A DNA stretch of 64,000 nt. It comes from Planctomycetota bacterium (lineage in GTDB: Bacteria; Planctomycetota; UBA11346). Below the pieces are notes generated by a model. The model saw only the letters and a program-made list of their open reading frames with translations, was not told the origin of the DNA and did no database searches. Below, in pieces: positions 3,588 to 37,780 of this stretch; positions within the stretch are counted from its first letter, which is position 1; every line of letters starts with the position of its first letter. The position numbers and the translations under genes are program-made. The stretch is taken from the NCBI GenBank assembly GCA_044338255.1, contig JBIILZ010000002.1:23043-87042 (forward strand), in the 5' to 3' direction.

Positions 3588-3618
3588 AAATCTTCATCAA
3601 CTCGTAACGCGAAACTTT

Positions 3619-21100: not shown

Positions 21101-23099
21101 ACGCGATGACGAGCCGATTGCCGATTGGCGCGTGGTCCCGGCTGCCGGCGTCGATCATCTCCCGGTCTCGGCGGGCAAGCTCCTCGCCACCGTCCCCGCC
21201 CGTCAACGCCGGGGCAGCGACGCCAATCAACCGGCGCAGATCGCCAGCGCCGCCCAACGCATGGTCGATCATCTGCAAGAGGCCGGCTATCCCGAGGCTC
21301 GGGTGCAACCGACGATCAGCACGATCCATCCCGAGCCCATCGAGTTCGCGGTCACCCCCGGCAATTCATGGACGATCACCGCGAGCCGCGTGCAGGGCGC
21401 GCCCACCGACCTGCTCGCGACCTTGGATGCGATCGTCGCCAAAGGTCTGCCGCGCGGCGCGGCGCCGACGCCGAGCGCCGAGATCGCCACCCGGGCGGCA
21501 TTACGCCAGGCCATGCGCAATGCCGGGTATGCCCTCGCGGAAGTGCGCAGCCAGATCGTGCGCGATCCGCAGGCAGAGGCCAACGCCCTGGTCACCATCA
21601 CCGTCGAACCCGGCCTGCATTACCGCTTCGCCACGCAAGCACCGACGATCACCGGCGAGCTCGACGACGCCATACGTTCGCGCCTGACCGAGACCTACCT
21701 AGCGGTGCAGGGGAAGGATTGGACCCGCCGCCGGGTCATCAATCTGCGCGCCCAATTGCTGCAGATCCTACACCTCGAAGGTTACACCTTCGCCCAGGTG
21801 GTGCTCACCGACGACGAACCGGCCCTGCTGCCCAACGTGCTCTGTAGCGTGCAGATCACTCCCGGAGCGCCGGTGATCGTCCAGGCCATCAACCTCAGTG
21901 GGTTCCATTACACCTCTCACGAGTATGTCCGCCATCGTCTGCAGCTGCCACTCGGCACGCCCCTGCGCGATGGCGAACCCGAGGCCGCACTCGGGCGCCT
22001 GCGCCGCAGTGGTGTCGCCCGCAGCGTGAAATCCACCGTCACTCCCGTGGGCCTGGCCCTGCCCGGCATGCAACCGGAGCTACAGCCCGCAGAGCTGAAC
22101 ATCATCGCCGAGGAAGCCCCGCCGCGCAGCGTCGAATTGGCGGCGGGCTACGGCAGCTACGAAGGCGCGCGCGGCAGCGCCCTCTACCGCGACAGCAACC
22201 TCTTCGGCTGGGGCCGCACCTGGGAGCTCGGCGGCGATCTCAGCCAGCGCAGCCAGGGCGCGCACACGCGCATCATCGATCATGATCTGCTCGGCATTCA
22301 ACGCATCCTCAGCGTCACCCTCAGCGGTGGCTGGCGCCAGGAGCCATCATTCGATCGTACCTCGTATGCCAGCGAGTTCAGCCTGCGCGCACCGCTCACC
22401 GATTGGCTCGATCTGCGTACCACCTACACCCTCGAAGCCGAGCGCGCCAGCGAACGTGCCGCCGTCGTCGACGACTCGCAGGATCAAGGCTTCGTGCTTA
22501 ATGGCGTGCTCAACACCAGTCTGCTGTGGGACGGGCGCGATGATCGGCAGCTGCCCACGCGGGGCGGCCTTGCCGAGGTCGGCTTCGGCATCTCCGACCC
22601 TGCGCTGGGCTCACAGATTTCGTACATCGAATGGTCGACGCGCCTGGGCTGGGTACTGCCGGTGGTCGATGAGCGCCTGATCCTGGCGACGCAGGTCGCG
22701 GGCATCGTACGCCGCATCACCGATGGCACCGACAACCTGCCCATCCAATATCGCCTGTTCCTCGGTGGCTCGACGACCGTGCGCTCCTTCGGCCTCAACG
22801 AGCTCAGTCCGGTGAGCGCCAATGGCGACGCCCTCGGCGGCCTCACCGCCGGCTATGCCAACGTCGAGTTACGCGCCAAGGTCTCAGGCAAATTCCATGT
22901 CGCGGCTTTCTATGATGTCGGCAAGGTCTCCGAACGCAGCTGGACCCTCGATGGAGCCCTCGGCCAAGCCCTCGGCGGTGGCCTGCGCTACCACCTGCCG
23001 ATCGGCCCCCTGCGCGTGGACGCGGCCTACAACCCCGGCGAACGCTGGGCCGCCGACCAGAGCTATGCCATCGAAGGAGCGATCGGATTCACCTTTTGA
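18153..23099 (+). CDS. TamB-like (AsmA-like/DUF490) protein fused to POTRA + Omp85 (TamA/BamA-like) beta-barrel
   Basis: Single 1648-aa ORF. N-terminal Arg-rich signal-anchor (RRWRRWLLVTALIVSTLGAAAWVV). DUF490-type C-terminal TamB block (LIEASASTQVQGYLITAQISGTLRHPHVDVSSSPPL...RVEYQLYDPWYLYGERDLYEAYNLGLMWRWIF). After an acidic linker come POTRA-like repeats and an Omp85 barrel (AAGYGSYEGARGSALYRDSNLFGWG...LFLGGSTTVRSFG...GGLRYHLPIGPLRVDAAYNP...AIGFTF). Confidence 0.8.
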   Translation: MPPTPPPAAITRRPRRWRRWLLVTALIVSTLGAAAWVVRERWLGPLIARAVVQTLHEEIGGRWSVARVSGTLISNLRIEGLTALETAPDSVLTQAHVESITFTYRWWRFFGTEKLTAIDGVVLEDVDLTIDSAATASSATTAASATTAASATTAASTTTATRTFPTIPWAMPISATGTVTVLTPAGTLEANELHLEGRLDHLQLDAHLRLAGHQLGKLRLAAEHHGPLPTAGWNLDSHVQEADEPPLHLAVAVSAATPQLSATLTAGEGTRLTCATAAPGVVFSATGDATRLAPALRRVSAAIGVSLPNNGRVSLDGTRADDGTVSIAHGRVDHPAITANITAGRWHPDTGLLSLADGDAQIRPTYLKPSLARYLDEKALLTLHAQAREGRLEVQLTSADLPLPLSAEAQLDGHLASAAWRSAALQVQLTASADGDNHYRAQLGLNGSWAALHGNLKIQAARVIAGTWQANDLAAQAQLTMTAAGQQPARLEGQWTLTAAAIRASPTKADWSLASSGQLHADEHGLQLVTEITTPLVAQATLTSATPFSADGAWLTGFTSTPLGGQWQLSDLDLAQVASLLPERVHLDGHARGHGELQDLWQPQNWSAVLHAEHVNLGGLPPLPPLLDIEAAITASPAGILINTLSARAGGGQVQVSGSLPLPQQDGPLALNVVCKDALIFQRPDVRLRADAEVQLTGTWAAPALKGDVHLTDLVATTPVSWFGGRDLPVVASPFEGLSSLPPPWNLMQLELHLTGGQDPRKALEIRNNVVVARLAIDVTVAGKVQLPVPSGEILCRKGRLVLPFSAYAIDSAALRFNPADPYDPLIEASASTQVQGYLITAQISGTLRHPHVDVSSSPPLAPEDALVLASTGRLPAEMRRDGTSASAISVALPFVGRELQRWVLGDGFADDGDSILDRFVIRYDEERSQRGLPSVRVEYQLYDPWYLYGERDLYEAYNLGLMWRWIFADPARAKSTRPVEDERDDEPIADWRVVPAAGVDHLPVSAGKLLATVPARQRRGSDANQPAQIASAAQRMVDHLQEAGYPEARVQPTISTIHPEPIEFAVTPGNSWTITASRVQGAPTDLLATLDAIVAKGLPRGAAPTPSAEIATRAALRQAMRNAGYALAEVRSQIVRDPQAEANALVTITVEPGLHYRFATQAPTITGELDDAIRSRLTETYLAVQGKDWTRRRVINLRAQLLQILHLEGYTFAQVVLTDDEPALLPNVLCSVQITPGAPVIVQAINLSGFHYTSHEYVRHRLQLPLGTPLRDGEPEAALGRLRRSGVARSVKSTVTPVGLALPGMQPELQPAELNIIAEEAPPRSVELAAGYGSYEGARGSALYRDSNLFGWGRTWELGGDLSQRSQGAHTRIIDHDLLGIQRILSVTLSGGWRQEPSFDRTSYASEFSLRAPLTDWLDLRTTYTLEAERASERAAVVDDSQDQGFVLNGVLNTSLLWDGRDDRQLPTRGGLAEVGFGISDPALGSQISYIEWSTRLGWVLPVVDERLILATQVAGIVRRITDGTDNLPIQYRLFLGGSTTVRSFGLNELSPVSANGDALGGLTAGYANVELRAKVSGKFHVAAFYDVGKVSERSWTLDGALGQALGGGLRYHLPIGPLRVDAAYNPGERWAADQSYAIEGAIGFTF
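18554..18625 (+). repeat. 18-nt in-frame tandem repeat x4 (encodes ATASSATTAASATTAASATTAAS)
   Basis: Units cactgcc(t/g)c(a/c)tcggcgac read directly. Located inside the N-terminal part of the TamB-like ORF. Confidence 0.9.
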
Positions 23100-23199
23100 C
23101 CCCAAGGGATTGGCAATATTCGCCCATGAGCCTGGCGGAGATTGGCCAGCAAGGCTGATTCGGTCTCGCCGAGCATCTCCGGCATTGCAGGATTTGAGG

Positions 23200-24351
23200 T
23201 CAACAGCAACTGCCACCCGCAGGGCAACAGGTGCCTCCAACCTGATAATCTAGCGGTAGGACACCGTTCTTGGTCTCGCTGGGGTGACGCAGTCGATGGC
23301 TATCGCAGATATACTGCGTCTGCTCGGCCTCGGGAATCGGGGCGTAGGGTGGCAGCCCGATGACCTGCGCCGCATAGGGCGCGCTGGTCAGCAGACGATA
23401 GGTCTTGGCGCAGACAGCGGTGCGTTCACCACGACGGAGGACATGGCCATCGTCGTCACGGACTTCGCTCCATGGCCCTGGATAGATCACCGCGTGATGG
23501 CCTTCGCGGCAGGGCCCCTGCTTGCCCTTGTAGGCCACCACCGTCACCGAACGGTATTCGATGCCGGCGACTACCTGCCAGGGCGCGGCATCGCGCTTTG
23601 CCAGCTGCACGCCATGGAATCCGGCATCGGCGAATGCCTGCAGGAAGCGATCTTCGCGGAAGGCACCGCTGATGCAGCCCGACCACAAGGTTGGGTCGGC
23701 CTGCTGCGCGAGCGGCACATCCTCGTCGCTGACGATGTCGGAGATGGCCACCCGGCCGCCGACCTTGACCACCCGGAAGAGTTCAGCGAACAGCGCGGCC
23801 CGCTGTTGGGGATCGACCAGGTTCAACACGCAATTGGACACCACCACATCGATGGAGGCATCACCGATCACCGGTGCGGTCCGCCGCAGACGTTCCTGTT
23901 CCGCCTCAAGGGCGAAGAGGTCTTCGCGACTGCGCACCGGATGCTGCGCCAGCCAGCCGTCGAGGGCTTCGAGATCGAGTGCCAGATCATGGATCGCACC
24001 GCAGCGAAACTCGGTGTTGGCGAAACCGATCTTAGCGGCGACCTGTGGTGCCGCGCCCCGGGCCAGAGCGAGCATGTCGCGATTGCGATCGACCCCGATG
24101 ACCTTGCCCGCCGCCCCGACGACCTGCGCGGCGATGAAGCAGATCTTCCCGCCCCCGCTGCCGAGATCGAGCACGGTGTCACCCGCTTGCACGAAGGTCG
24201 ACGGGTCCCCGCAGCCGTAGTCGCGGTCGAGGATCTCCTGGGGAATTGCCTTCAGCCAGCGCGGGTCGTAGGTCACCGGGCAGCACAGCGCGGCCTCGAC
24301 GGACTTGGAGGCGGCACCATAGCGGTCTTGGACGGCAAGGGTCTGATTCAT
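23200..24351 (-). CDS. arsM: ArsM-type SAM-dependent (arsenite) methyltransferase, rSAM-cluster-associated
   Basis: SAM fold VLDLGSGGGKICF...VIGVDRN...VVSNCVLNLV. Cys positions resemble As(III)-binding sites of ArsM/AS3MT (ALCCPV, DYGCGDP, WSGCISGAF), and the tail is Cys-rich (TCCPAGGSCC). The ATG overlaps the upstream GT2 stop (ATGA). Confidence 0.7.
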   Translation of the reverse strand: MNQTLAVQDRYGAASKSVEAALCCPVTYDPRWLKAIPQEILDRDYGCGDPSTFVQAGDTVLDLGSGGGKICFIAAQVVGAAGKVIGVDRNRDMLALARGAAPQVAAKIGFANTEFRCGAIHDLALDLEALDGWLAQHPVRSREDLFALEAEQERLRRTAPVIGDASIDVVVSNCVLNLVDPQQRAALFAELFRVVKVGGRVAISDIVSDEDVPLAQQADPTLWSGCISGAFREDRFLQAFADAGFHGVQLAKRDAAPWQVVAGIEYRSVTVVAYKGKQGPCREGHHAVIYPGPWSEVRDDDGHVLRRGERTAVCAKTYRLLTSAPYAAQVIGLPPYAPIPEAEQTQYICDSHRLRHPSETKNGVLPLDYQVGGTCCPAGGSCC

Positions 24352-25094
24352 GGTGATTCCGTGATTCGATCTGTTTTCAACGGTGATTGCGCTGGCGACG
24401 GCAGAGGTACCAGGCGATAGCGCAGAATGGTGGTGATGATGGCCCAGCCGGCTTTGAATACCGGCAGGATGCGGCCGCTGATTTTCGACTCGCCGGCGGT
24501 GCGAACTTTCGCGTCGACCGCCAGCTCGCCATAGCGCAGCCCGAGTCGCAACGCCTTGGTCTGCATCTCTGCCGTCCAGCCGAAGGTGCGATCCTGCATG
24601 GCGAGCCTGGCCAGGGCCGCACAGCTGATGCAGCGGAACGGGCCAAGATCGGTGACGCGCCGCCAGAACAGCAGCCGCAAGAGCAGCGTGGCGACGAGGT
24701 TGCCGGCCAGTTGCGGTGGCGTGAGGGCACCGGGCTCACGTTGGCCGAGTGCGCGGCTACCGATGTGCAGGTCGAGCAGGCCGATCACGACCGGGCTGCA
24801 GAGCGCTTCCAGACGTGACAGATCATCGGCGCCATCCGCATCGCAGAAGACCACCGCCACGGCGTCTGCCGGAACCGCCGCTAGGCCAGCTAGGCAAGCC
24901 GCGCCATAGCCACGTTGCAGCGCTGGTACCACCTGCGCGCCGGCGGCGCGCGCGACCTCGGCCGTGCGATCCGTGCTACCATTATCGGCGACGATCACGG
25001 TACCAATACCAGCAGCCAGCAGGCGCGTGACCACCGGCGTGAGTGAGCCCTCTTCATTCCAGGCAGGGATAACGGCGATGACGGAAGCGAGCAT
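24348..25094 (-). CDS. family-2 glycosyltransferase, 'transferase 2, rSAM/selenodomain-associated' type
   Basis: VIAVIPAWNEEGSL...VIVADNGSTDRTAEVARAAGAQVV...VVFCDADG (GT-A DxD). Its position next to ArsS/ArsM-type genes fits the TIGR04283 family as I recall it. Confidence 0.7.
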   Translation of the reverse strand: MLASVIAVIPAWNEEGSLTPVVTRLLAAGIGTVIVADNGSTDRTAEVARAAGAQVVPALQRGYGAACLAGLAAVPADAVAVVFCDADGADDLSRLEALCSPVVIGLLDLHIGSRALGQREPGALTPPQLAGNLVATLLLRLLFWRRVTDLGPFRCISCAALARLAMQDRTFGWTAEMQTKALRLGLRYGELAVDAKVRTAGESKISGRILPVFKAGWAIITTILRYRLVPLPSPAQSPLKTDRITESP

Positions 25095-25182
25095 GCTTGC
25101 ACTCTAGTGCCCCGGCTCGACAAAAGTAAGTGCCCAACACCGATCATCGTGCTGCGTAGCGTAGCGATGGAGCTGATTCCCT

Positions 25183-26133
25183 ATGTATGCACCCGTAGCA
25201 ACCGCACTTCCTTGGCTTGAGCCGGTTCTGCGCCAACCGTTGACTACATTGCAATTGAACCTCGGTCGTTTCTGCAATCTGGCCTGCACCCATTGCCACG
25301 TCGAGGCCGGGCCCAAACGCACCGAGATGATGAGCGCAGAGGTACAGACGCGGGTGGCGGACTGGATCACCACGCATCGACCGCCGATTGTGGATCTGAC
25401 GGGTGGAGCCCCGGAGCTGATTCCTGGATTCCGTGACCTCGTGCGGACGGCGCGTGCGGCCGGGGCGCAGGTCATCGATCGTTGCAATCTGGCGGTCTTG
25501 CAGGAATCCGGGCAAGAGGATCTGGCCGAATTCCTGGCCGCTAATCAGGTCCATGTAGTCGCGAGCATGCCGTGCTATCTGGCCGAAAATGTCGACCGGC
25601 AACGGGGCAAGGGTACCTACGACCGCTCCATCCAAGGTCTCCAGCGGCTCAATGCCGTCGGTTATGGCCGCGCCCCCGACCTGCCTTTGCACCTGGTCTA
25701 CAATCCGGGTGGGGCAGCGCTGCCCCCGGCCCAGGAATCTTTGGAAGCTGATTACCGTACGCGGTTGAAGGCCGATTGGGACATCGATTTCACTGGTTTA
25801 TGGTGCCTGGCGAATGTCCCCATCAAACGCTTCCGCCGCTTTCTTGAGGCCGCCGGCAAGCTCGCGCTCTATGAGGACAAACTGCGGGCAGCATACAATC
25901 CCGCGACGCTCGCGGGCCTGATGTGCCGCACCACGCTCAGCGTCGACCACACCGGCACGCTCTACGATTGCGATTTCAATCTGGCCTGCGATCTGCCGCT
26001 CTCGGATCAGCCGGCGCAGCATCTGTGGGACATCCTTCCCGCGGCGCTGACGTCGCAGCCGATCGCCATGCGTGCGCATTGCCTGGCCTGCACGGCCGGT
26101 TGCGGCTCCAGCTGCACCGGGGCCGTCGCGTGA
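25183..26133 (+). CDS. arsS: radical SAM/Cys-rich-domain protein, ArsS type (arsenosugar-biosynthesis rSAM family)
   Basis: TLQLNLGRFCNLACTHCHVEAGP (CX3CX2C), LTGGAPEL, and the C-terminal Cys-rich domain ...LMCRTTLSVDHTGTLYDCDFN...HCLACTAGCGSSCTG. This is the architecture of TIGR04167. Here Cys sits where some homologues carry Sec. Confidence 0.8.
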   Translation: MYAPVATALPWLEPVLRQPLTTLQLNLGRFCNLACTHCHVEAGPKRTEMMSAEVQTRVADWITTHRPPIVDLTGGAPELIPGFRDLVRTARAAGAQVIDRCNLAVLQESGQEDLAEFLAANQVHVVASMPCYLAENVDRQRGKGTYDRSIQGLQRLNAVGYGRAPDLPLHLVYNPGGAALPPAQESLEADYRTRLKADWDIDFTGLWCLANVPIKRFRRFLEAAGKLALYEDKLRAAYNPATLAGLMCRTTLSVDHTGTLYDCDFNLACDLPLSDQPAQHLWDILPAALTSQPIAMRAHCLACTAGCGSSCTGAVA

Positions 26134-26170
26134 TTCCAGGAAAACGGTGTCCCCGCGGCGGCGTCACAGC

Positions 26171-27505
26171 GTGATCGCTAACGGCCTACGGTCTTGGTGG
26201 CCCCTTATTCCGGCGGGTCTCGCGGCCCTCCTCGCGCTCGCGGTGCTGGCTGTCCAGGCGGGCTCATGGCGCGAGCAACCCGTGCTTTTCGCTAGTTGCG
26301 CCGTGGGTCTCGGCGCAGCGATGCTGGCGGGTTTGGCGGTGGTACGCCATCGTGACGTCGGACCGCTCGGGCTCGCATGGATCCTCGTCGTCGGGGTGGC
26401 GTTGCTCGGAATGGGTCTGCGCATCGCCCCGTCTGATGATGTCTTCCGCTACGTCGTCGAAGGACGTCAGCTGCTGGCGGGACAGAATCCGTTTTCGATT
26501 CCTCCTGCCGCTCCCCAGGCGCAGGCCCTCGTTGAGCCAGCGATCAGCGCCGGGGTCAACCATCCGGAAATGACCGCCATCTATCCCCCTCTGGCCCTGG
26601 GTCTGCATGCCGCGGTGGAGGGGTTCTCACCTGGCGTGCGCGGTTTCCAGGTGCTTGCCGGCGTCCTTGCGCTGGCCTGCCTGGGAGTGGCGACATGGCT
26701 GCTGCGTCGCCTGGGACGTGATCCAGCACTCATCCTGGCCGCGGCGTGGAATCCCGTCCTGCCGCTCTTTGTCGCGGGTGAAGGCCACCATGACATCGCG
26801 ATGGCTTTGCTGATGTTGCTGGCGTTGACTACCGCCTGCGTGGCGCGGCCGTGGCCGGCCGTGCTGGCCACCGGGGCTGCCTGCCTGGTGAAGCCATTCG
26901 CGTTGGCGCTGGTGCCCGCGTTGATGCCGAGCGTGGGCTGGCGGCGATGGCTGATCCTACCTTTAATTGCCGTGCTCGCCTATCTGCCGTTCGCCGGTGC
27001 CGGTATGGGTATGGTGGGTAGCCTGATGGTGTACGGGGGAGAGCGTCACTTCCACGGCGTCCTCGATCCCTACCTGCGCGATGGCTTGCGGATGGTGGTG
27101 TCACCAGCCGCACTGGAGCGGTCGATCCGCGTCCTCCTGGTCGTCCTGCTGCTGAGTGGTGGATGGCTAGTGCAGCGACGCATGGCCGGTCGGCCATTGC
27201 CGGAACGCGCGGTTGCGTTCACCGTCGTGATGTTCCTCTGTCTGCCGACGATGCATCCGTGGTACCTGGTTGCGCTGGTGGTGTTGCTGCCGTTTTCCCG
27301 TTCATGGGCGTTGCCATTGTGGACCGCCGGAGCCGGCATCTATTGGCTGCATGGGATGCGCATACTCGACACCGGTGCGTGGATCGAGACGCGGTGGGTC
27401 ACGGCCCTCGCGCATCTGCCGGCGCTGGCGCTGCTCGCCTGGGAATGTCGAACGAAGGGCAGCCGCATCACCCGCCATCCGCTCACGCAGGTAGCGCATG
27501 ACTGA
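26171..27505 (+). CDS. polytopic membrane protein, GT-C/DUF2029-like glycosyltransferase candidate
   Basis: Many predicted TM helices. First-loop acidic motif SDDVFRYVVEGRQLLAGQNPFSIPP is typical of GT-C/DUF2029-like enzymes. Start moved to the in-frame GTG at 26171, just after the arsS stop (the ORF track starts at 26072, inside arsS). Confidence 0.5.
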   Translation: MIANGLRSWWPLIPAGLAALLALAVLAVQAGSWREQPVLFASCAVGLGAAMLAGLAVVRHRDVGPLGLAWILVVGVALLGMGLRIAPSDDVFRYVVEGRQLLAGQNPFSIPPAAPQAQALVEPAISAGVNHPEMTAIYPPLALGLHAAVEGFSPGVRGFQVLAGVLALACLGVATWLLRRLGRDPALILAAAWNPVLPLFVAGEGHHDIAMALLMLLALTTACVARPWPAVLATGAACLVKPFALALVPALMPSVGWRRWLILPLIAVLAYLPFAGAGMGMVGSLMVYGGERHFHGVLDPYLRDGLRMVVSPAALERSIRVLLVVLLLSGGWLVQRRMAGRPLPERAVAFTVVMFLCLPTMHPWYLVALVVLLPFSRSWALPLWTAGAGIYWLHGMRILDTGAWIETRWVTALAHLPALALLAWECRTKGSRITRHPLTQVAHD

Positions 27506-28133
27506 TCCGACCCTGGTCATCATCGCCAAGCCGCCGGTACTCGGTCTGGTGAAGTCACGTCTTGCCGCCGGCATCGGCGCGGAGGACGCACTCGCGGTCT
27601 ATCGGCACTTGCTCGCCATCGTGGCGCGCACGGCCGCTGCCTGGACGGGTCCGGTGCTGCTGTCCGCCCAGCACCTCGACGGATGGCATGGCACCGGACT
27701 TGAACATCTGCCACGCCAGCTGCAGCCGCCTGTCGACCTCGGGGGTCGTATCGGCGCGGCCTTGCGTTGGGGTCTGACCCTGGCGCCGACAGCCGTGGCC
27801 ATCGGCACCGATTGTCCAGGTCTGACGCCTGCGCACGTGCGCGACGTCGCTGCGGGCCTGGACGATGCCCCGCTGGCGTTCGGTCCGGCAATGGATGGCG
27901 GTTATTGGGCGATTGGAGCCTCAGCGGGCGCCCCGCTCGATCTGGTGTGTGCCGCCGATCTGCCGTGGTCGACGCCCCGTCTGCTGGCGGTCACGCGTCA
28001 GCGCTTGCAAGGGGTTGGCCTGACGTGGCACGAAGGCCCGACGCTCGCGGATTGCGACGATCGAGCCGATCTGGAGGCCGCCATCGCCGAGGGTCTCCTG
28101 AAATGGCCAAGCACCGGGCTGTCAGCTCCGTAG
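27498..28133 (+). CDS. DUF2064-type transferase, 'transferase 1, rSAM/selenodomain-associated' type
   Basis: LVIIAKPPVLGLVKSRLAAGIGAEDALAVYRHLL...IGTDCPGLTPAHV...GPAMDGGYWAIG matches the DUF2064/TIGR04282 pattern. Overlaps the upstream gene by 8 nt. Confidence 0.7.
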   Translation: MTDPTLVIIAKPPVLGLVKSRLAAGIGAEDALAVYRHLLAIVARTAAAWTGPVLLSAQHLDGWHGTGLEHLPRQLQPPVDLGGRIGAALRWGLTLAPTAVAIGTDCPGLTPAHVRDVAAGLDDAPLAFGPAMDGGYWAIGASAGAPLDLVCAADLPWSTPRLLAVTRQRLQGVGLTWHEGPTLADCDDRADLEAAIAEGLLKWPSTGLSAP

Positions 28134-28143
28134 AGCGTTGACC

Positions 28144-29046
28144 ATGCTACGCATCACCAAATTCCTACGCCGTGCCACGCTCGCTTCCTGGATGGTGCTC
28201 GGCATATCCGCGTTGCCGGCGGTCGAGGCCATTCCGACCCCCGCCTCCGCGGCTGCCATTGCCGCCCCCGCCCTCGATGCCGCCCCCGCCCTCGATGCCG
28301 CCCCCGCCCTCGATGCCGCCCCCGCCCTCGATGCCGCCCCCGCCCTCGATGCCGACCACGCCATCTGGGGCGCGGTGCTGGCCCAGATCGTGCGCCCCGA
28401 TGGCGTCGACTACGCCGCGGTCCAGCGGTTGCAGCCCGAACTCGATCGCTACCGCTTCCAGCTCGCCCATGCGGTCGAGCCCACCGCAACCGCCGAACGG
28501 CTGGCCTTCTTCATCAATGCCTACAACGCGCTGACGGTGCAGCTGGTCGCCAGCAAGCTCCCGGCCGATCAGAAGACCTGGCCCGATTGGAGCATCACGC
28601 TCATCGGGCCGCCGGCCGGTAATGCCTGGAAGGGCTACAGCTTCGTGGTCGCTGGCGTCCCGCGCACTCTCGATGCGATCGAGAACGCCGTCCTGCGCCC
28701 GCTGGGCGAGCCGCGGATCCACTTCGCGATCAATTGCGCCTCGCGCTCGTGTCCGACCCTGTCCGCGCAGGCGTACCGCGCCGCGACCCTCACCGCCCAG
28801 CTCGCCAACGCCACCGCCGCCTTCGCCCACGACCCCACCCAGCTCCGCCTGGCCGATGGCCATCTGCGCGTCAATCCCATCCTCGACTGGTTCGCGGCGG
28901 ATTTCGCCGCCGCCGGCGGGGTGCGGAAATTCCTGCTCTCCGAGGTCACCGAACCCGGCCCGCTGGCAACCCAGCTTGCGGGTGCCGACCCCTTGCAATT
29001 CTTCATCTACGACTGGCGCCTCAATCTCGCCCACGCACTTCCCTGA
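28144..29046 (+). CDS. secreted DUF547-domain protein with (APALDA)5 repeat
   Basis: Signal peptide (MLRITKFLRRATLASWMVLGISALPAVEA). DUF547-like core: AFFINAYNALTV...VAGVPRTLDAIENAVLRPLGEPRIHFAINCASRSCPTL...YDWRLN. Confidence 0.65.
   Translation: MLRITKFLRRATLASWMVLGISALPAVEAIPTPASAAAIAAPALDAAPALDAAPALDAAPALDAAPALDADHAIWGAVLAQIVRPDGVDYAAVQRLQPELDRYRFQLAHAVEPTATAERLAFFINAYNALTVQLVASKLPADQKTWPDWSITLIGPPAGNAWKGYSFVVAGVPRTLDAIENAVLRPLGEPRIHFAINCASRSCPTLSAQAYRAATLTAQLANATAAFAHDPTQLRLADGHLRVNPILDWFAADFAAAGGVRKFLLSEVTEPGPLATQLAGADPLQFFIYDWRLNLAHALP
28261..28350 (+). repeat. 18-nt in-frame tandem repeat x5 (gccgcccccgccctcgat)
   Basis: Five perfect copies read directly. Encodes AAPALD x5 just after the signal peptide of the DUF547 protein. 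Confidence 0.95.
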
Positions 29047-29098
29047 ACAATTCCTTGAACAATTCCTTGAGCAATTCCTTGAACAATTCCTTGAGCAG
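29044..29098 (+). repeat. 12-nt tandem array TGA(A/G)CAATTCCT x4.5 filling an intergenic spacer
   Basis: Read directly: tgaacaattcct tgaacaattcct tgagcaattcct tgaacaattcct tgagcag. It begins with the DUF547 stop codon and ends 4 nt before the next ATG (29103). It is AT-richer than its surroundings. Confidence 0.95.
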
Positions 29099-29102
29099 CC
29101 CC

Positions 29103-31322
29103 ATGAGCACCAGTGTCCTGCCCGCTAATCCGCTGCTGCGTTTCGCCAACTGGCTGCATCTGCAGTGGCCGGCGGGCATCCCCGAACGGTTGCCGGTGGT
29201 GGCGGCGGATGCGGGCACCACCGTGCCAGGCTTGCTGATCGTCGGGGATCTCACCGGCGTCCCATTGCTGAAGTTCGCACTCGATACCGGCGCCAAGGCG
29301 GCGCAACGCTGCATCCGCGAGCTCGGAACGCCAGGTGCCGACCACGCAATTTTCGATGTCGTGATCATCGGCGGGGGCGTGGCGGGAATGGCGGCGGCGC
29401 TCGAACTGGCCGGCAGCAGCCTGCGGTTCTGCATCCTCGAATCCAATCAGCGACTGGCCACCATCGCCAATTTTCCGTTCGGAAAACCCATCTTCACCTA
29501 CCCCAGCGCGATGGTGCCCACCGGTCGGCTCCAGGTAGGTGCGGGGGTCAAAGAGGAGCTGCTGGCGGAACTCGAAAGCCAGTTTTCCGGCCGCGATCTG
29601 CCGTTGCAGCAGGTCAACGCCACCCATGTCGAGAAGCGCGGCGACCATCTCGCGGTGATGCTGGCCGAGGGCCAGCCGCTGCTGGCCCGCCGGGTCATCG
29701 TCGCCATCGGCCGCAGTGGGAATTTCCGCAAGCTCGGCGTGCCGGGCGAAGACCTGCCGCAGGTGGTGAACCGGCTGCACGATCCCAAGCATTACACCGG
29801 CCAGGCCGTGACCGTGGTCGGGGGTGGCGACAGCGCCTGCGAGGCCGCCATCGCCTGTGCCGCCGCCGGGGCGCGGGTGACGTTGGTGCATCGCGGGGCG
29901 GATTTGGCCAAGGCCAAGGCGGAAAACGCCAAGCAGGTCATGGCGCTCGCGACGCAGGGCACGCTCCAGGTGCGTTTCGGAGCCAAGTTGACCGGGATCA
30001 CCGCCACCGCCACCATGCTGGCCAACGGCGAATCCTTCGCCTCTGACGGAGTCCTGGCGCTGATCGGGCGCGAGGCCCCGTTGGACTTCTTCCGCCGTTC
30101 CGGGGTGCCCATACGCGGCGAACGTTCGTATCCGGTGCTCCTCGGTCTGGCGATCTTCTTCGTCGCCATCACCCTGCTCTACACTATGAAGGCCTTCGGG
30201 TTGTTCGCCCAGGCCACCTGGAATCCGGCGCAGCTCGCGCACCAGCATCTGTTGTCGTTGCAGGCAGCAGGGGCCGCCAAGGGTTTCTGGTACACCATCA
30301 CGGCCTCGGCCAGCAATGGCATCGGCTTCTTCATCTCCGTCCTCTACTGCACCGCGGTGGTCTCCTTCGGCATCGACCGGATGCGGCGGCGGCGCACGCC
30401 GTATGTGCGCCTACAGACGCTGTGCCTGATGGCGGTGCAGTGCATCCCGCTCTTCCTCCTGCCGGAGGTGGTGCTGCCGTGGCTGGGGCATCTCGGGGCG
30501 TGGGACGGCGGCTGGCTCAAGAGCGTCGCTGACAGTCTGTTCCCGGCGGTGGATTACGACGCCAATGGCCGCGAATACTGGCGTGCGTATGGCTTCCTGC
30601 TCGCGTGGCCGCTGTTCGTGTGGAATGTCTTCACCAGCCAGCCGCTGACCGGCTGGCTGATCATCAGTCTGGTGCAGACCTTCGCCATCATCCCGCTGAT
30701 CGTGTGGCGATGGGGCAAGGGCGCCTATTGCGGCTGGTTGTGTTCGTGCGGGGCGCTGGCCGAGACCATGGGTGATCGCCATCGCACCAAGATGCCGCAC
30801 GGGCCGCTCAGCAACCGCTTCAACTTCATCGGCCAGATCGTGCTCGCGGTGGCCTTGATGATGCTGGCGCTGCGGGTGCTGGCGTGGGTCACCGGCTGGG
30901 GCTGGGCCACCAACGCCGGCCAGCAGGCACTCGTCCACGGCTGGAAGCCGGTGGTCGATTTCTTCCTCGCCGGGGCCCTGGGCACCGGGCTGTATTTCGC
31001 CTGGTCGGGCCGGGTGTGGTGCCGTTTCGCCTGCCCGTTGGCAGCCCTGATGCATATCTATGCCCGATTCAGCCGCTTTCGCATTCTGGTCGACAGCAAG
31101 AAATGCATCTCCTGCAATGCTTGCACCACAACCTGCCATCAGGGCATCGACATCATGCAGTTCGCCAATCGCGGATTGCATATGGAGGATCCGCAGTGCG
31201 TCCGCTGCTCGGCCTGCGTGCAAGCCTGTCCGACCGATGTGCTGTCGTTCGGGCGGGTCGATGGCAAGGGCGAGATCAGCGGTCGCGATGCGATCTCGGC
31301 GCGGGTAGCGGAATCAACCTGA
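29103..31322 (+). CDS. NAD(P)/FAD-dependent oxidoreductase fused to a polytopic NapH/MauN-like 4Fe-4S (polyferredoxin) membrane domain
   Basis: Start trimmed to ATG 29103 (MSTSVLPANP...). Two dinucleotide folds (DVVIIGGGVAGMAAA; VTVVGGGDSACEAA). These are followed by TM helices with CGWLCSCGALAE and WCRFACPLAALM motifs, and two ferredoxin motifs CISCNACTTTC and CVRCSACVQACP. Confidence 0.7.
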   Translation: MSTSVLPANPLLRFANWLHLQWPAGIPERLPVVAADAGTTVPGLLIVGDLTGVPLLKFALDTGAKAAQRCIRELGTPGADHAIFDVVIIGGGVAGMAAALELAGSSLRFCILESNQRLATIANFPFGKPIFTYPSAMVPTGRLQVGAGVKEELLAELESQFSGRDLPLQQVNATHVEKRGDHLAVMLAEGQPLLARRVIVAIGRSGNFRKLGVPGEDLPQVVNRLHDPKHYTGQAVTVVGGGDSACEAAIACAAAGARVTLVHRGADLAKAKAENAKQVMALATQGTLQVRFGAKLTGITATATMLANGESFASDGVLALIGREAPLDFFRRSGVPIRGERSYPVLLGLAIFFVAITLLYTMKAFGLFAQATWNPAQLAHQHLLSLQAAGAAKGFWYTITASASNGIGFFISVLYCTAVVSFGIDRMRRRRTPYVRLQTLCLMAVQCIPLFLLPEVVLPWLGHLGAWDGGWLKSVADSLFPAVDYDANGREYWRAYGFLLAWPLFVWNVFTSQPLTGWLIISLVQTFAIIPLIVWRWGKGAYCGWLCSCGALAETMGDRHRTKMPHGPLSNRFNFIGQIVLAVALMMLALRVLAWVTGWGWATNAGQQALVHGWKPVVDFFLAGALGTGLYFAWSGRVWCRFACPLAALMHIYARFSRFRILVDSKKCISCNACTTTCHQGIDIMQFANRGLHMEDPQCVRCSACVQACPTDVLSFGRVDGKGEISGRDAISARVAEST

Positions 31323-31345
31323 ACCTGGCGAATTCGCCGCCGGGT

Positions 31346-32203
31346 TCAGACCCGGCAGCTGACCGTCGCCCCGAGATAGCGCGCCAACAGGGGTTCGCTC
31401 GCGTGCTCAGGGCACAGTACCTCCGCCGGGGCGCCGCAGGCCCGCAGGGCTCCACCGGTTGCTGCTGGTCCTGATCCCGGCCACAGCAAAGCCACCTGAT
31501 CCGCCAGGCGTCGGGCCTGGGCCAGATCGTGGGTCACCAGGACGATGGTGTAGAAGCCGCGCATGCCGGCGATGAGCTCCTCGATGATCCCGGCCGACAG
31601 CGGATCGAGGGCGCTGCAGGGCTCATCCATGAGCAGAACTTCGGGCTCCAGCACCAAGGTCCGCGCCAGGCACAGCCGCTGCTGCTGGCCGCCCGAAAGC
31701 GTGGTTGCGGATTGCGCCAGCCGGTCGCTGACTTCCTGCCACAGACCCACCGAGCGCAGCGCGCGCTCACTGCGATCGGCGCGCTCCTGCCGGTTGCGGC
31801 AGCCGTGCTCACGCAAGGGGATGTCGAGATTGGCGGCGATCGACAGGGGAAACGGCGTCGGGCGCTGGAAGATCATCCCGATGCGCCGCCGCAGGGCGAT
31901 GAGATCGGTCTGCGGTGCGCGGAGGTCGCGCCCTTGCCACCAAATCCGACCCTCGACCCGCGCCGCGGGCTCCACCGCATCCAGGCGATTGAGGCACGAC
32001 AGCAGGCTGGATTTGCCGCATCCGGAAGGACCCACCAGGGCGGTAATGCGGCAGGCCCGCACGCGCAGATCGATGTGGCGGAAAGCCCAGGTGCGGCCGT
32101 ATGCCAACCCGAGTCCTTCCACCTGCAGATCGCCACAGGGGCCATCAGGTGAGGCGCAGGTCGCCCCTAACAGCAGCGGGTCCGCACACGAGGTAGTGAT
32201 CAT
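31346..32203 (-). CDS. pstB: phosphate ABC transporter ATP-binding protein
   Basis: GPSGCGKSSLLSCLNRL, LSGGQQQRLCLAR, LLMDEPCSALDP. Start at ATG 32203 overlaps the pstA stop (ATGA). Confidence 0.92.
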   Translation of the reverse strand: MITTSCADPLLLGATCASPDGPCGDLQVEGLGLAYGRTWAFRHIDLRVRACRITALVGPSGCGKSSLLSCLNRLDAVEPAARVEGRIWWQGRDLRAPQTDLIALRRRIGMIFQRPTPFPLSIAANLDIPLREHGCRNRQERADRSERALRSVGLWQEVSDRLAQSATTLSGGQQQRLCLARTLVLEPEVLLMDEPCSALDPLSAGIIEELIAGMRGFYTIVLVTHDLAQARRLADQVALLWPGSGPAATGGALRACGAPAEVLCPEHASEPLLARYLGATVSCRV

Positions 32204-33036
32204 TGGACGACCTTCCGATGAGCTTGTAACAGGGCGCTGCTGGCCACTTGGATGCCGATGAGGCACAGGATGAGGATGAGGGCGCTGGCGGCGGCCGACG
32301 GATCGCCACCTGCCACGTTCATCGCCAGTTCATAGATGTGCACGGCGATGGTGCGTCCGGGATTTTCCAGGCCGCTCGGCATGCGGTCTGAACCGCCGGA
32401 GGTGAATACCAGGGCGGCGGTCTCGGCCAGGGCCCGGCCCGTGCCTAATCCACACGCTGCCAGCAGACCTGGCATGGCCTGCGGGAGTATGAGTCGCGTC
32501 AGCGTGGTCGTGCGTGACAGCCCGAGGGCCGCTGCTTGGGCGATGAGGGCTGACGGGACTGCGCGCAGGGCGGTATCCGCGACCCGGATCACCAACGGCA
32601 GGATCATGCAGGCCAGAGTCAGGCCGCCGCACGCGATCGAGAACCCGAGCCCGAGCAGGTCACCGAAGAACAGCATGCCGAACATCCCCAGTACGATCGA
32701 GGGCAGACCCGACAGCAGATCCAGGCTGCTGTGCACCCAGCGGGTCCAGGCCCGCCGCGAACTGGAAAGGGCGATCGCCGCACCCAGGGCCACGGGCAGG
32801 ACGAGCGCCCAGCACACCACCAGCGTGAGACCGGTGGCGACCAGGATGCTGGAGATGCCGCCGGCTCGGCCCGCACGACGCGGCAGCTCGCTGAATAGTC
32901 CCCAGCTCAGGCGCGGCCAGGCGGCGAGCAGCAGGTCGGCGATCAGCCAGCCGGCCGCCCCGAGCAGGGTCAGTACCGCCACTGCCGCCAAGGCATCGAG
33001 CGTGCGATCTCGCCAGGGTCGGGAGCGTTCAGACAT
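32200..33036 (-). CDS. pstA: phosphate ABC transporter permease PstA
   Basis: Polytopic permease in pstSCAB order with an EAA-loop-like region (AAALGLSRTTTLTRLILPQA). Start trimmed to ATG 33036. Confidence 0.85.
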   Translation of the reverse strand: MSERSRPWRDRTLDALAAVAVLTLLGAAGWLIADLLLAAWPRLSWGLFSELPRRAGRAGGISSILVATGLTLVVCWALVLPVALGAAIALSSSRRAWTRWVHSSLDLLSGLPSIVLGMFGMLFFGDLLGLGFSIACGGLTLACMILPLVIRVADTALRAVPSALIAQAAALGLSRTTTLTRLILPQAMPGLLAACGLGTGRALAETAALVFTSGGSDRMPSGLENPGRTIAVHIYELAMNVAGGDPSAAASALILILCLIGIQVASSALLQAHRKVVQ

Positions 33037-33916
33037 GGGTCGGCTGCTTCGCACCCGGGGTCGACCGCTCTGCGCTCAAGGTTGGCAAACAGCGCAGGGC
33101 GAGCAGCACGCCGGCCACCAGCAGCATCGCCACCAGGCCGAGAGTGAACAAGGCGCTGCGATGCGTGCCGGTAGCATAGGCCATCTCCAGCGCGACGCCC
33201 CCGGTCAGTGTGCGTATGGGATCGAAGATGCTGTGCGGAACGGCGACGATGTTGCCGGCGACCATCACCACCGCCATCGTCTCACCGATGGCACGGGTGA
33301 ATGCGAGCACGGTGCCGTTGGCGGCTCCGTGCCGCAGGGCCGGCAGCCCGGCCACGCGCAAGCAGCCCCAGGAGGATAAGCCCAGGCTCTGCGCCGCGCG
33401 CCGGTGTTCAGCCGGCACCGAGCGCAGCGCGGCATCCGTCACCAGCAGGATGAGCGGGGCGACCATCAACGCGAGTACGAGACCCGCCGCCAACAGGCCG
33501 AGGCCCGGCGCGTGCAGGTGGCCGATAACCGGGACCAGTGCGGTGAGCCCCCACAGGCCGACGACCACCGAGGGCAAGCCGGCGATGATGATGGCGATCA
33601 AACGGACCGTGCTGGCCAGTGAAGATGGCAGCAGCCAGCCGCTGGCGATGCCGCCGAATACGCCAAGCGGCACCGCCACTAGCAGCGCCACGGCGGTTAC
33701 CGCGAGACTACCCGCGATCATCCCCCAGGCGCCGACCCGACCATCCGCCGGCACCCAGGTGGCATCGGCGAGGAAGCCGGTCACGCCATAGGCCGCCAGT
33801 CCGGGCAGGGCACCGACGCTGATGACCCACACGACCGCGAAGAAGATAGCGCCGGCGACCACCGCCGCCGACCCGCTGGCGATGGCCAGCAACCGATCAG
33901 CGTTGCGGCGAGACAA
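33029..33916 (-). CDS. pstC: phosphate ABC transporter permease PstC
   Basis: Polytopic permease with EAA loop AAQSLGLSSWGCLRVAGLPALRHG. Lies between pstS and pstA. Confidence 0.85.
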   Translation of the reverse strand: MSRRNADRLLAIASGSAAVVAGAIFFAVVWVISVGALPGLAAYGVTGFLADATWVPADGRVGAWGMIAGSLAVTAVALLVAVPLGVFGGIASGWLLPSSLASTVRLIAIIIAGLPSVVVGLWGLTALVPVIGHLHAPGLGLLAAGLVLALMVAPLILLVTDAALRSVPAEHRRAAQSLGLSSWGCLRVAGLPALRHGAANGTVLAFTRAIGETMAVVMVAGNIVAVPHSIFDPIRTLTGGVALEMAYATGTHRSALFTLGLVAMLLVAGVLLALRCLPTLSAERSTPGAKQPTHV

Positions 33917-34712
33917 AGGCCAGATCCGTGATCAGCGCCTCGACGGCCGTCGAGCGGGCGAGTTCGATCAGACCGGCGACGGAGCCGGTGGGCGCGCTGG
34001 TGACGACCAGATTCAGCGGGCGGGTCAGCGGCCAAGTGCCATCACGGACGGTCTCGAAGCTCGGGACATGACCGTCGAGCGTCAGGAGCTTGATCGCGAC
34101 GCCCGCATTGATGTCGGTCTGCGCCGCCCCGATCGAAAGATAGGCGATCGCCCCGGGGGTGACCGCCACGGTCTTAATGCCCTGGGCATTATCGGCGATC
34201 ACCACCGCGGCTTTGATCGCCGCCGTCTTGATCTCGAAATGATGGAGGAACAGCTCCAAGGTGGAGTGGGCCTCCGATTTGTTGACCACCACGATCGGCA
34301 GGTCGGCGCCACCGACCTCGTGCCAGTTGGTGACTTTTCCGGTGTAGATGTCGATCACCTGGGCCCGGGTCAGCCTGGCCACCTGATTGTCGCGGTGCGC
34401 GATGCAGGCGACGCCATCGAGCGCGATGGTGTAGGCGGTGAGATCGGATTCATCCGCCTTCAACTTCCGTGACACCATGCCGATGGTGCTGCGGCCGGCG
34501 CGGACGTCGGCCACGCCGCGCGTACTGCCACCCGTCTGCACGTCGATGCGCACGTCCGGGTGGCGGGCTTCATACACGCGTGCGATCTCGCTTACCAAGG
34601 GGGCCACCGTGCTCGAACCGGTCAAGGTCAGGGCGGTGTCACTGGCGGCCAGGCGCGTCACCGACGCGGCGAGGAGCAGGATAAATGAAGTGACATGTAA
34701 AAGAGTAGTCAT
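33897..34712 (-). CDS. pstS: phosphate-binding periplasmic protein (PstS family)
   Basis: Signal peptide plus LTGSSTVAPLVSEIARVYEARHPDVRIDVQTGGSTRGVADVRAG...IGMVSR, the PBP-like-2/PstS pattern. Confidence 0.85.
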   Translation of the reverse strand: MTTLLHVTSFILLLAASVTRLAASDTALTLTGSSTVAPLVSEIARVYEARHPDVRIDVQTGGSTRGVADVRAGRSTIGMVSRKLKADESDLTAYTIALDGVACIAHRDNQVARLTRAQVIDIYTGKVTNWHEVGGADLPIVVVNKSEAHSTLELFLHHFEIKTAAIKAAVVIADNAQGIKTVAVTPGAIAYLSIGAAQTDINAGVAIKLLTLDGHVPSFETVRDGTWPLTRPLNLVVTSAPTGSVAGLIELARSTAVEALITDLAFVSPQR

Positions 34713-34980
34713 TGGGTGTGCAATTCCGATGCGAGGTCAACGTGGGCAGGAATCGAGTCGCATTCTGCAGCTCGAGCCACGTTCAAGCCACTGTACGAGA
34801 GAATAAATAATCTGTTTGTCTGAAAAAAAAAACATCCAATCGGGTGAGCCTTGGTCACTGAGACTTTACGCAGTTTGCGCCAAGGGACGGCGAAGAACTG
34901 CCAAACAGTCTTCGCGATGGAGCGTACGGCGTGAACCGGATCTGTGCTCTCGCAGATCATAACCCCAGGAACTGCGCTTC

Positions 34981-36233: not shown

Positions 36234-36313
36234 CTTTGAAAATGCGGATCCGTGCGACGCTGCCAATTTCGACGCAGGGCTATGTTTTTTCATCTCGTGA
36301 CGGCAATCCAACG

Positions 36314-37669: not shown

Positions 37670-37780
37670 ATTAGGCCCTTGCCGGGTATAGCATAGTGGA
37701 GTTTGCTGGGGTCATGGTGACGTAGCCTGTGTCGCCGGCGTGAATGCGGGCGATGACGAGGCGGAGCCAGGCGCGAGGTT

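Follow-up and report, generated by a model that had tools for sequence, protein, structure and literature searches.

Among the closest described relatives of the locus reported here is the arsenosugar pathway of Synechocystis sp. PCC 6803, in which ArsM and ArsS act. ArsM methylates As(III). ArsS belongs to TIGR04167, which was originally defined as a Cys/Sec-rich family of radical S-adenosylmethionine (SAM) enzymes. The names of two transferase families, TIGR04282 and TIGR04283, derive from genomic context only, and we know of no assigned enzymes for the steps of arsenosugar and arsenolipid formation that follow ArsS. Dpm1-like family 2 glycosyltransferases (GT2) produce polyprenyl-phosphate sugars and glycosyltransferases of the GT-C class consume them; the mycobacterial pairs, Ppm1 with PimE or MptA and PpgS with Rv3779, normally move hexoses. 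In Synechocystis, ArsS transfers 5′-deoxyadenosyl from SAM onto dimethyl-As(III) (Cheng et al. 2021, via PMC12159101), and PMC12159101 presents this enzyme as the only ArsS characterised so far. TIGR04167 also appears among predicted selenoproteins (PMC9312934). In our literature search the ArsS neighbourhood was not described beyond ArsS and ArsM. Here we examine a seven-gene ArsS locus at positions 23200-31322 of a 64,000-nucleotide stretch of Planctomycetota DNA from contig JBIILZ010000002.1, which we call the window; we found no description of this cluster variant in the searchable literature.

We read the locus, with moderate confidence, as a variant of the ArsS-ArsM organoarsenical (arsenosugar-type) cluster that is typical of the Planctomycetota-Verrucomicrobiota-Chlamydiota (PVC) group and Myxococcota and is built of two coupled modules. 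The cluster joins enzymes for carbon-arsenic bonds to membrane and export genes, a combination that recurs in other phyla, so the cell envelope is probably where the arsenic compound, or a molecule that partners it, is handled. The seven open reading frames (ORFs) form two packed, divergent units, two genes on the minus strand and five on the plus strand, as the first-pass annotation of this DNA had described. In the minus-strand unit, an ATGA overlap, CCATGAATC, joins the stop of a GT2 gene to the start of an ArsM-like methyltransferase gene. The plus-strand unit runs from ArsS through a GT-C protein, a DUF2064 protein and an exported DUF547 protein to a fusion of a flavoprotein with a NapH/NosR-like polyferredoxin, with an 8-nt overlap, ATGACTGA, between the GT-C and DUF2064 genes. 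Between the units lie 88 bp (25095-25182), presumably a shared promoter or regulator site; no sigma-70-like site was found in this spacer, a sigma-70 scan being uninformative for Planctomycetota, and the numbers of promoters and terminators predicted across 22900-38000 were those of shuffled sequence. The window has a G+C content of about 65%, and its closest relatives are Planctomycetota metagenome-assembled genomes (MAGs). Public annotation of the cluster uses the names "radical SAM/Cys-rich protein", "arsenite methyltransferase" and "glycosyltransferase involved in cell wall biosynthesis", and for the rest "hypothetical protein", "GT-A superfamily (DUF2064)" and "NosR/NirI family regulator".

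ArsS and its proposed cytoplasmic partners

The radical SAM protein (25183-26133, plus strand, 316 aa) scores 411.1 bits against TIGR04167, for which the cut-off is 300, and its residues 17-315 align with positions 4-303 of the 303-position model. Judged by this score it is a clear member of the ArsS equivalog, and it is the sole protein of the cluster above its curated NCBIfam cut-off. It contains the Radical_SAM domain PF04055 (42.9 bits) and DUF3641 (PF12345, 159.3 bits), and its CX3CX2C radical SAM motif reads CNLACTHC. The C-terminus, HCLACTAGCGSSCTG, matches the family signature HCxxCTAGxGSSCxG, which is present in the other ArsS proteins compared with minor substitutions only (in L076, for example, it starts with YC). 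The window protein has an extra Cys in this signature that is shared mainly by Planctomycetota relatives.

The ArsM-like SAM methyltransferase (23200-24351, minus strand, 383 aa) presents a mixed picture. It falls below every ArsM model: 334.9 bits against NF040538 (arsinothricin ArsM, cut-off 500), 179 against PRK11873 (NF008823, cut-off 263) and 112.9 against NF038099 (arsenosugar ArsM, cut-off 400), and it is thus nearer to the arsinothricin than to the arsenosugar type without passing either. The motifs CC, GCGDP and SGCISGA and the tail CCPAGGSCC, which the first-pass annotation had quoted together with the two ArsS motifs, can all be read in the translations. A fourth ArsM-type Cys, in SNCVLNL, adds to that list. 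In an alignment to the CmArsM structure 4FR0, YGCG, SNCV and SGC supply the equivalents of Cys72, Cys174 and Cys224, and CC22-23 falls about 5 residues from the position of Cys44. The proposed identity as an ArsM is supported by the four cysteines and not by the model scores. We compared 19 methyltransferases, that of the window and 18 from ArsS loci (L010, L021, L029, L035-L037, L040, L050, L051, L053, L054, L059, L064, L070, L072, L080, L084 and L087). The ArsM-type cysteines and a C-terminal Cys-Cys are invariant in all of them, the Cys-Cys being common to the two methyltransferase subfamilies that accompany ArsS. The subfamily of the window protein is marked by a conserved insert of about 26 residues. 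The window protein also has a C-terminal domain, and its homologues with 53-61% identity adjoin ArsS in about 11 loci.

The DUF2064 protein (27498-28133, plus strand, 211 aa) narrowly misses TIGR04282, with 122.5 bits against a cut-off of 134 over the full length of the model (1-189 of 189). It passes PF09837 (66.9 bits), and a putative nucleotide-diphospho-sugar transferase, 3CGX, is its match among the sequences of the PDB. As first proposed, ArsS stands at the centre of the cluster and is accompanied by a methyltransferase of the ArsM-like kind and by a protein similar to TIGR04282.

These proteins would make up the cytoplasmic module of the cluster. The methyltransferase would produce methylated As(III), since its four As-binding cysteines are conserved, and ArsS, given its equivalog-level membership, would modify dimethyl-As(III) with the 5′-deoxyadenosyl group of SAM. 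Relatives have an MTAP-like phosphorylase that could then remove adenine to leave arsenoribose-1-phosphate, which the DUF2064/TIGR04282-like protein, with its nucleotidyltransferase-like fold, might activate or hand on. Such a phosphorylase gene lies inside the cluster of L084 (12302-13072; 122 bits against TIGR01694, cut-off 275), and genes of the PNP_UDP_1 family are found near the clusters of L087 (13918-14787), L074 and L102. These MTAP-like or PNP-type phosphorylases are candidates for removing adenine from the ArsS product.

We consider it highly improbable that the cluster acts on something other than arsenic, such as Sb, Se, Te or S, and that its 'Ars' names are merely inherited from one cyanobacterial enzyme. 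Such a substrate would be consistent with the single characterised ArsS and the selenoprotein connection of TIGR04167 cited above, with the methyltransferase scores, and with the rhodanese genes that recur nearby (L003, L051, L087, L102 and L103). It would also fit the lack of arsR, arsC and acr3 in the window: as the first-pass annotation had stated, there is no match to the ArsR, ArsB, Acr3 or ArsC families among 44 further window ORFs scanned. A gene with a low-molecular-weight protein tyrosine phosphatase fold at 56268-56795 was considered as an ArsC and rejected, as it matches Wzb-type phosphatase models only. Against another substrate stand an ArsS that exceeds its equivalog cut-off by more than 100 bits, a methyltransferase that retains exactly the four As(III)-binding cysteines of CmArsM, and a Pst-type oxyanion importer adjacent to the cluster both in the window and in L057.

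Recurrence of the gene set across phyla

To place the remaining genes, we mapped the neighbourhoods of 80 GTDB ArsS loci, of at least 570, with hidden Markov models (HMMs) and phmmer, and scanned metagenomes with the single GT-C protein, which gave 11 loci. Of the transferases, TIGR04283 occurs at about 36 of the 80 ArsS loci and TIGR04282 at about 30. The window-type methyltransferase is found at about 11 and a second ArsM-like methyltransferase type at about 7, while DUF547 occurs at 10, the flavo-polyferredoxin fusion at 4 and the GT-C at 3. Given these last three counts, the GT-C, DUF547 and fusion proteins are not general partners of ArsS, and their association with it is lineage-restricted. 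Their expected co-occurrence with ArsS was found within the clade and not for ArsS loci at large.

Two other neighbours of ArsS came up in this survey and were not mentioned as ArsS partners in our literature search. One is a protein of about 715 aa that combines a DedA/VTT domain with a MerA/lipoamide-dehydrogenase-like disulfide reductase; it is found in L045 (6288-8435) and about 19 further ArsS loci, or about 20 of the 80. The other, DUF3047, occurs at about 13, and the two rank among the most frequent neighbours of ArsS.

Where the three additional genes do occur, they keep company in several arrangements. L085, whose fusion protein is 90% identical to that of the window, matches the window layout. 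The order ArsS-DUF547-U305-GT-C-DUF2064-fusion is found in L001-L003 and the metagenome loci L094-L098, and again in L086 and L092, there with a divergent GT2. A MAG of the Kofleriaceae (L087) combines ArsS, a TIGR04282::TIGR04283 fusion, the methyltransferase, a window-type GT2 and DUF547 with a GT2::GT-C fusion, the flavo-polyferredoxin, a VTT protein and a PNP-family gene. In Puniceicoccus vermicola (L084) the order is TetR-DUF547-ArsS-methyltransferase-fusion-MTAP-like-DUF2064, the GT-C being absent from the set. L101 has ArsS-DUF2064-fusion-DUF547-GT-C-GT2, though its GT-C is only 32% identical, and L005 is reduced to ArsS, a GT2 and the fusion. The GT2 type of the window also lies within the clusters of L004, L086, L087, L092 and L093.

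U305, an exported protein of about 305 aa, is encoded between DUF547 and GT-C in the majority of Planctomycetota forms of the cluster (L086 7068-7985, L001-L003, L092, L094 and L096); it has no Pfam or NCBIfam match, and the window holds no homologue of it at E < 1e-3. In L092 a phage-type integrase and a HicAB toxin-antitoxin pair (848-2642) border the cluster, a hint that the cluster may sit on a mobile island.

Homologues of the cluster proteins are also joined in single chains. The GT-C is fused to a window-type GT2 in P0247, P0252, P0238 and P0241 (39-44% identity), to DUF2064 in P0258 and to a methyltransferase in P0232. In P0107 the flavo-polyferredoxin continues through a transmembrane helix into DUF547, and this extra helix is predicted to put DUF547 on the membrane side opposite the Fe-S domain. 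Chance adjacency can be rejected because the set recurs across phyla in shuffled order and because there are four kinds of gene fusion. Indeed, the proposal that the GT-C, DUF547 and flavo-polyferredoxin genes are non-random additions is upheld by L001-L003, L086, L092, L094 and L087, by L084 apart from its missing GT-C, by the distant form in L101, and by the fusions.

Linkage of this kind could also arise if two independent systems, perhaps co-regulated, shared the locus: ArsS, ArsM and DUF2064 would make a soluble organoarsenical, and GT2, GT-C, DUF547 and the fusion would form an ordinary-sugar envelope-glycan or lipid-modifying and redox module that never touches arsenic. We regard this as unlikely. 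It would account for L093 and L102, where the membrane module (GT2, DUF547, GT-C and fusion) occurs without ArsS in the sequence examined, and for P0107, which adjoins a type III polyketide synthase and a monooxygenase and has no ArsS within 10 kb. A second GT-C paralog and an outer-membrane-protein-like gene near the window cluster, and the hexoses that Dpm1-like/GT-C pairs normally move, agree with it as well. Yet ArsS may fall just outside the DNA of L093 and L102, both of which are fragments of contigs. The genes of the two supposed systems are interleaved in one packed, overlapping unit and are retained together across phyla despite shuffled order, and the DUF2064::GT-C and GT-C::methyltransferase fusions bridge the two.

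Glycosyltransferases and redox proteins of the proposed membrane module

The first-pass annotation had related the cluster to a TIGR04282/TIGR04283 transferase pair. For the GT2 (24348-25094, minus strand, 248 aa) this did not hold: it scores 32.4 bits against TIGR04283, whose cut-off is 182, and true members at other ArsS loci reach 273 (L041) and 210 bits (L087). With the narrow miss of the DUF2064 protein and the scores of the methyltransferase, three of the four proteins that were expected to match these families fall below the cut-offs, ArsS alone passing. We also discarded the idea that the GT2 is a diverged TIGR04283, since in L087 the window GT2 type occurs alongside a true TIGR04282::TIGR04283 fusion. 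The best models for the GT2 are AglJ (TIGR04182, 95 bits of a cut-off of 325, E 4e-27), Dol-P-hexose transferase (44 of 375) and PpgS (43.5 of 370), and PF00535 gives 55 bits. Its resemblance to polyprenyl-phosphate sugar synthases of the Dpm1/AglJ type is thus apparent at the level of the clade only, and the weak GpgS matches, the only ones among PDB sequences, do not settle the acceptor type.

The polytopic protein downstream of ArsS (26147-27505, plus strand, 452 aa) starts at GTG 26147 in the public call or at GTG 26072. It scores 20.9 bits against GT87 (PF09594), where the cut-off is 25; a precomputed match to PF26314 (MptA_B) is recorded, and a sequence search against the PDB gave nothing useful. 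Its AlphaFold model is of high quality, with a predicted local distance difference test (pLDDT) score of 94 and a predicted template-modelling (pTM) score of 0.93. The top structural match of the model is ALG3 (E 2.5e-5, TM 0.59/0.69); PimE has TMt 0.62, and ALG9, ALG6, GPI-MT-I, EmbB, AftA and ArnT match as well. D98 is invariant and lies in the consensus SDDVxRYxWDGR in the first extracytoplasmic loop. By its modelled structure, this protein is a GT-C enzyme similar to MptA/B, PimE and ALG3, of the class that uses lipid-phosphate-linked sugars at the outer face of the membrane.

A Dpm1/AglJ-like GT2 that has a GT-C as its partner most naturally suggests a step at the membrane or envelope. 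In the membrane module, the GT2 would charge polyprenyl phosphate with a sugar, possibly the arsenosugar, at the cytoplasmic face, and the GT-C would move this sugar to an acceptor at the periplasmic face, as in known GT2/GT-C pairs. Transfer to polyprenyl phosphate by the GT2 is indirectly supported by its pairing and fusion with the GT-C. A third kind of glycosyltransferase in the membrane module, a CelA/PgaC-like membrane GT2, stands free between ArsS and the fusion in L005 (10997-12463) and, with 54-55% identity, is fused N-terminally to the GT-C in L087 (7149-10004) and L093 (15241-18084).

The DUF547 protein (28144-29046, plus strand, 300 aa) scores 76.8 bits against PF04784, well above the cut-off of 27. 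It consists of a signal peptide, an (APALDA)n linker and a DUF547 domain with a Cys pair, NCASRSCP. C198, C203 and P204 are at least 90% conserved, CAxxxCP is present in every DUF547 at ArsS loci, and the window protein shares a hydrophobic, signal-like N-terminus with most full-length copies. The predicted model has a pLDDT of 90 and no match among PDB structures at E <= 0.001; a search of PDB sequences likewise gave nothing useful. The linker is encoded by an 18-nt tandem repeat (28260-28362, 5.7 copies, 97% matches), and DUF547 proteins of relatives are 24-40 aa shorter, so the number of repeat copies appears to be variable. A second tandem repeat, of 12 nt (TTCCTTGAACAA, 4.7 copies, 29039-29094), fills the spacer between the DUF547 and fusion genes; in L085 these two genes overlap and the spacer is missing.

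The fusion protein (29103-31322, plus strand, 739 aa) opens with a flavoprotein half of about 345 residues, with Pyr_redox_2/3 at residues 85-345, followed by Fer4_5, Fer4_21 and two 4Fe-4S motifs. The flavoprotein half is of the NAD(P)H-dependent thioredoxin reductase (TrxR)/YpdA/ferredoxin-NADP reductase (FNR) kind and lacks a CxxC; among PDB sequences it comes closest to YpdA/Bdr, thioredoxin reductase and TrxR-type ferredoxin-NADP reductases. In the membrane half, the stretch from residue 344 to 597 contains at least 5 hydrophobic helices. Among the Cys motifs, CRFACP is an exact CX3CP and CGWLCSC a variant of it; CxxCxxCxxxC occurs twice, and a 2x[4Fe-4S] ferredoxin domain forms the C-terminus. 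Against curated models the protein reaches 119.9 bits for YpdA/Bdr (TIGR04018, cut-off 339.9) and 61.4 bits for NapH/MauN (TIGR02163, cut-off 213). There are more than 3800 homologues, and the best 120 are nearly all full-length with the same architecture.

DUF547 proteins at ArsS loci usually have a pyridine-nucleotide flavoprotein with a membrane anchor beside or near them. This is the NapH-type fusion in the loci of PVC and Myxococcota; in L023, L025, L034, L055, L062 and L078, from Burkholderiales, Magnetococcales, Brocadiaceae and others, it is the DedA/VTT-anchored disulfide reductase, and L093 has both. L076 goes against the pattern, having a DUF547 with no such neighbour in the sequence examined. 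Plant class IV glutaredoxins (GRX) are GRX-DEP-DUF547 fusions (PMC13621322); no paper that combines DUF547 with radical SAM was found in our literature search. The proximity of the flavoprotein, the plant fusions and the conserved Cys pair point to a thiol-redox or metalloid-thiol role for DUF547. The flavo-polyferredoxin would pass electrons from NAD(P)H through flavin adenine dinucleotide (FAD) and Fe-S clusters into or across the membrane, and the exported DUF547, judging from P0107 and from gene adjacency, would be its periplasmic partner; DUF547 may bind the arsenical or its acceptor, or act on either as a dithiol reductase.

The fusion might instead be the dedicated reductant of ArsS, supplying the radical SAM cluster with electrons that NAD(P)H donates by way of FAD and Fe-S, with DUF547 a periplasmic and unrelated protein and with no transmembrane electron transfer. 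We judge this unlikely, and it does not exclude the two-module model. Radical SAM enzymes do require a low-potential electron donor. The TrxR-type FNR-like flavoprotein half without CxxC would suit that role, the 2x[4Fe-4S] domain should be cytoplasmic, like that of NapH, and L005 retains only ArsS, a GT2 and the fusion. However, the family has thousands of members, many without a radical SAM neighbour, and its natural fusion partner is DUF547, which the extra helix puts across the membrane. Other phyla have the MerA/glutathione reductase (GR)-like enzyme on a DedA/VTT anchor instead, and enzymes of this kind have disulfides or metal-thiolates as substrates and do not reduce Fe-S clusters. Moreover, a soluble enzyme could be reduced without any membrane anchor.

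From the gene content we infer a lipid-linked organoarsenical as a possible product of the coupled modules. In its most explicit form, the model has a polyprenyl-phosphate-linked arsenosugar that the GT-C moves to an envelope acceptor and a dithiol-bearing DUF547 that forms the periplasmic end of an NAD(P)H-driven transmembrane reductase not recognised before; this full version we consider improbable. If it were true, a route to an organoarsenical glycoconjugate, whether linked to lipid or bound to the envelope, would for the first time be defined by its genes. The membrane part of the reductase would be the NapH-type flavo-polyferredoxin or, in other phyla, the DedA/VTT-anchored disulfide reductase, and the domain common to DUF547 proteins and plant class IV glutaredoxins would gain its first function.

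Several observations weigh against an arsenosugar cluster coupled to the envelope. Both the arsenic on the lipid-linked sugar and the product of the cluster are putative, and the substrate of the window ArsS is assumed from a cyanobacterial enzyme. The methyltransferase, the DUF2064 protein, the GT2 and the fusion all score below the curated cut-offs given above (for the GT2, those of AglJ, Dol-P-hexose transferase and PpgS; for the fusion, those of the NapH-like and YpdA-like models), and the window cluster has neither an MTAP-like gene nor TIGR04283. About 70 of the 80 ArsS loci lack all three extra genes; P0107, L093 and L102 show the converse, membrane genes in stretches where no ArsS was seen. 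The role of DUF547 rests on context, because the protein has no structural relative in the PDB. Finally, the fusion, whose large family consists mostly of unlinked members, is a general-purpose redox module, because 4 of 9 homologues besides that of the window, more distant ones with 51-58% identity, stand alone without ArsS or DUF547 within 10 kb. The suggestion that the extra genes imply processing at the envelope keeps its footing in gene linkage and in the GT2/GT-C reading, while its chemistry is conjectural and it is too broad for ArsS clusters generally. As an interpretation of the sequence, an envelope-coupled arsenosugar-type cluster is plausible.

The variant is kept in at least three phyla and brings ArsS together with a glycosylation pair of the lipid-carrier type and with a redox pair in the membrane. 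It supplies testable candidates for the activation, export or anchoring of organoarsenicals, and a first contextual handle on DUF547, a domain found from bacteria to plants and without known function. One carrier, Puniceicoccus vermicola, is a named species with a genome assembly, so experiments may be feasible.

Surrounding genes and known systems

Convergent with the fusion gene lies a sequence-divergent, PstB-PstA-PstC-PstS-like set of genes on the minus strand (31346-34712) for an oxyanion importer of the ATP-binding cassette type. All four proteins score below their equivalog cut-offs (PstB 270/343, PstA 170/193, PstC 171/196, PstS family 170/207). The genes have the same position in the close relatives L081 and L085, and in L057, a MAG of the Methylococcaceae, a PstS/PstB pair (about 2800-6200; 287 and 269 bits) is convergent to ArsS. 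Pst-type importers are the classical entry route of arsenate, and the window genes may encode an importer of arsenate or another oxyanion that is tied to ArsS.

Beyond them, on the plus strand (34981-37669), a possibly associated trio encodes an exported protein (ORF122), an outer-membrane-protein-like ORF295 that ends in GHQF and the second GT-C paralog (36236-37669, 477 aa), which matches our GT-C HMM over its full length with 171 bits. Signal peptides and hydrophobic helices are predicted for these ORFs, none of which has a Pfam match. The same trio follows the Pst genes in L085, and the locus may reach as far as about 37669. The gene immediately before the cluster, on the plus strand at 18153-23099, encodes a 1648-aa protein with a very long N-terminal region and a C-terminal barrel of the BamA/Omp85 family (152 bits against TIGR03303, cut-off 297). 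Other genes upstream of the cluster, GOGAT, argC and hemB, are housekeeping genes.

Of the known systems, the arsenosugar pathway of Synechocystis sp. PCC 6803 resembles the window cluster in its equivalog-level ArsS and in the adjacent ArsM-fold methyltransferase with four As-binding cysteines, although the latter reaches only 113 of 400 bits against the arsenosugar ArsM model. The TIGR04282-like DUF2064 protein in the operon recalls the TIGR04282/TIGR04283 neighbourhood of arsenosugar genes, from which the window differs in having no TIGR04283 and a GT2 of another clade, the AglJ/Dpm1/PpgS-like one. Unlike the Synechocystis-type system, it adds the GT-C, the exported DUF547 and the flavo-polyferredoxin, each found at 3 to 10 of 80 ArsS loci. 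The arsinothricin cluster arsQML of Burkholderia gladioli provides the best model for the methyltransferase (NF040538, 335 bits, below 500), and both clusters have a radical SAM enzyme with a Cys-rich C-terminal tail for a C-As bond. The tails differ, HCxxCTAGxGSSC of the ArsS type in the window and RCCLKC of the ArsL type in arsQML (10.1101/2024.02.01.577332), and the ArsQ permease is absent here.

The membrane module has its nearest counterparts in the mycobacterial pairs Ppm1-PimE/MptA/MptB and PpgS-Rv3779. As there, a Dpm1-like GT2 lies beside a GT-C, here one modelled like PimE, ALG3 and Emb proteins; the two are fused in some homologues of the window proteins, and the Asp-rich first loop is conserved. 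The window scores are below the cut-offs in contrast (PpgS 43.5/370, GT87 20.9/25), and the pair is embedded in an ArsS operon of a Planctomycetota genome. The fusion shares with NapH, NosR and MauN the polytopic domain, here with one exact and one variant CX3CP-type motif, and the C-terminal 2x[4Fe-4S], and with YpdA (Bdr) and TrxR-type flavoproteins, TrxR-type FNR included, the N-terminal two-Rossmann FAD/NAD(P)H domain. It differs from both groups in joining these parts in one 739-aa chain that scores below both cut-offs (61/213 and 120/340). It also lacks the periplasmic flavin mononucleotide domain of NosR, its flavoprotein has no CxxC, and its partner appears to be DUF547 and not NapG or NosZ. 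Plant class IV glutaredoxins (GRX-DEP-DUF547) likewise join DUF547 physically to a thiol-redox module; they are cytosolic eukaryotic proteins, whereas here a free-standing, exported DUF547 is accompanied by a membrane flavoprotein.

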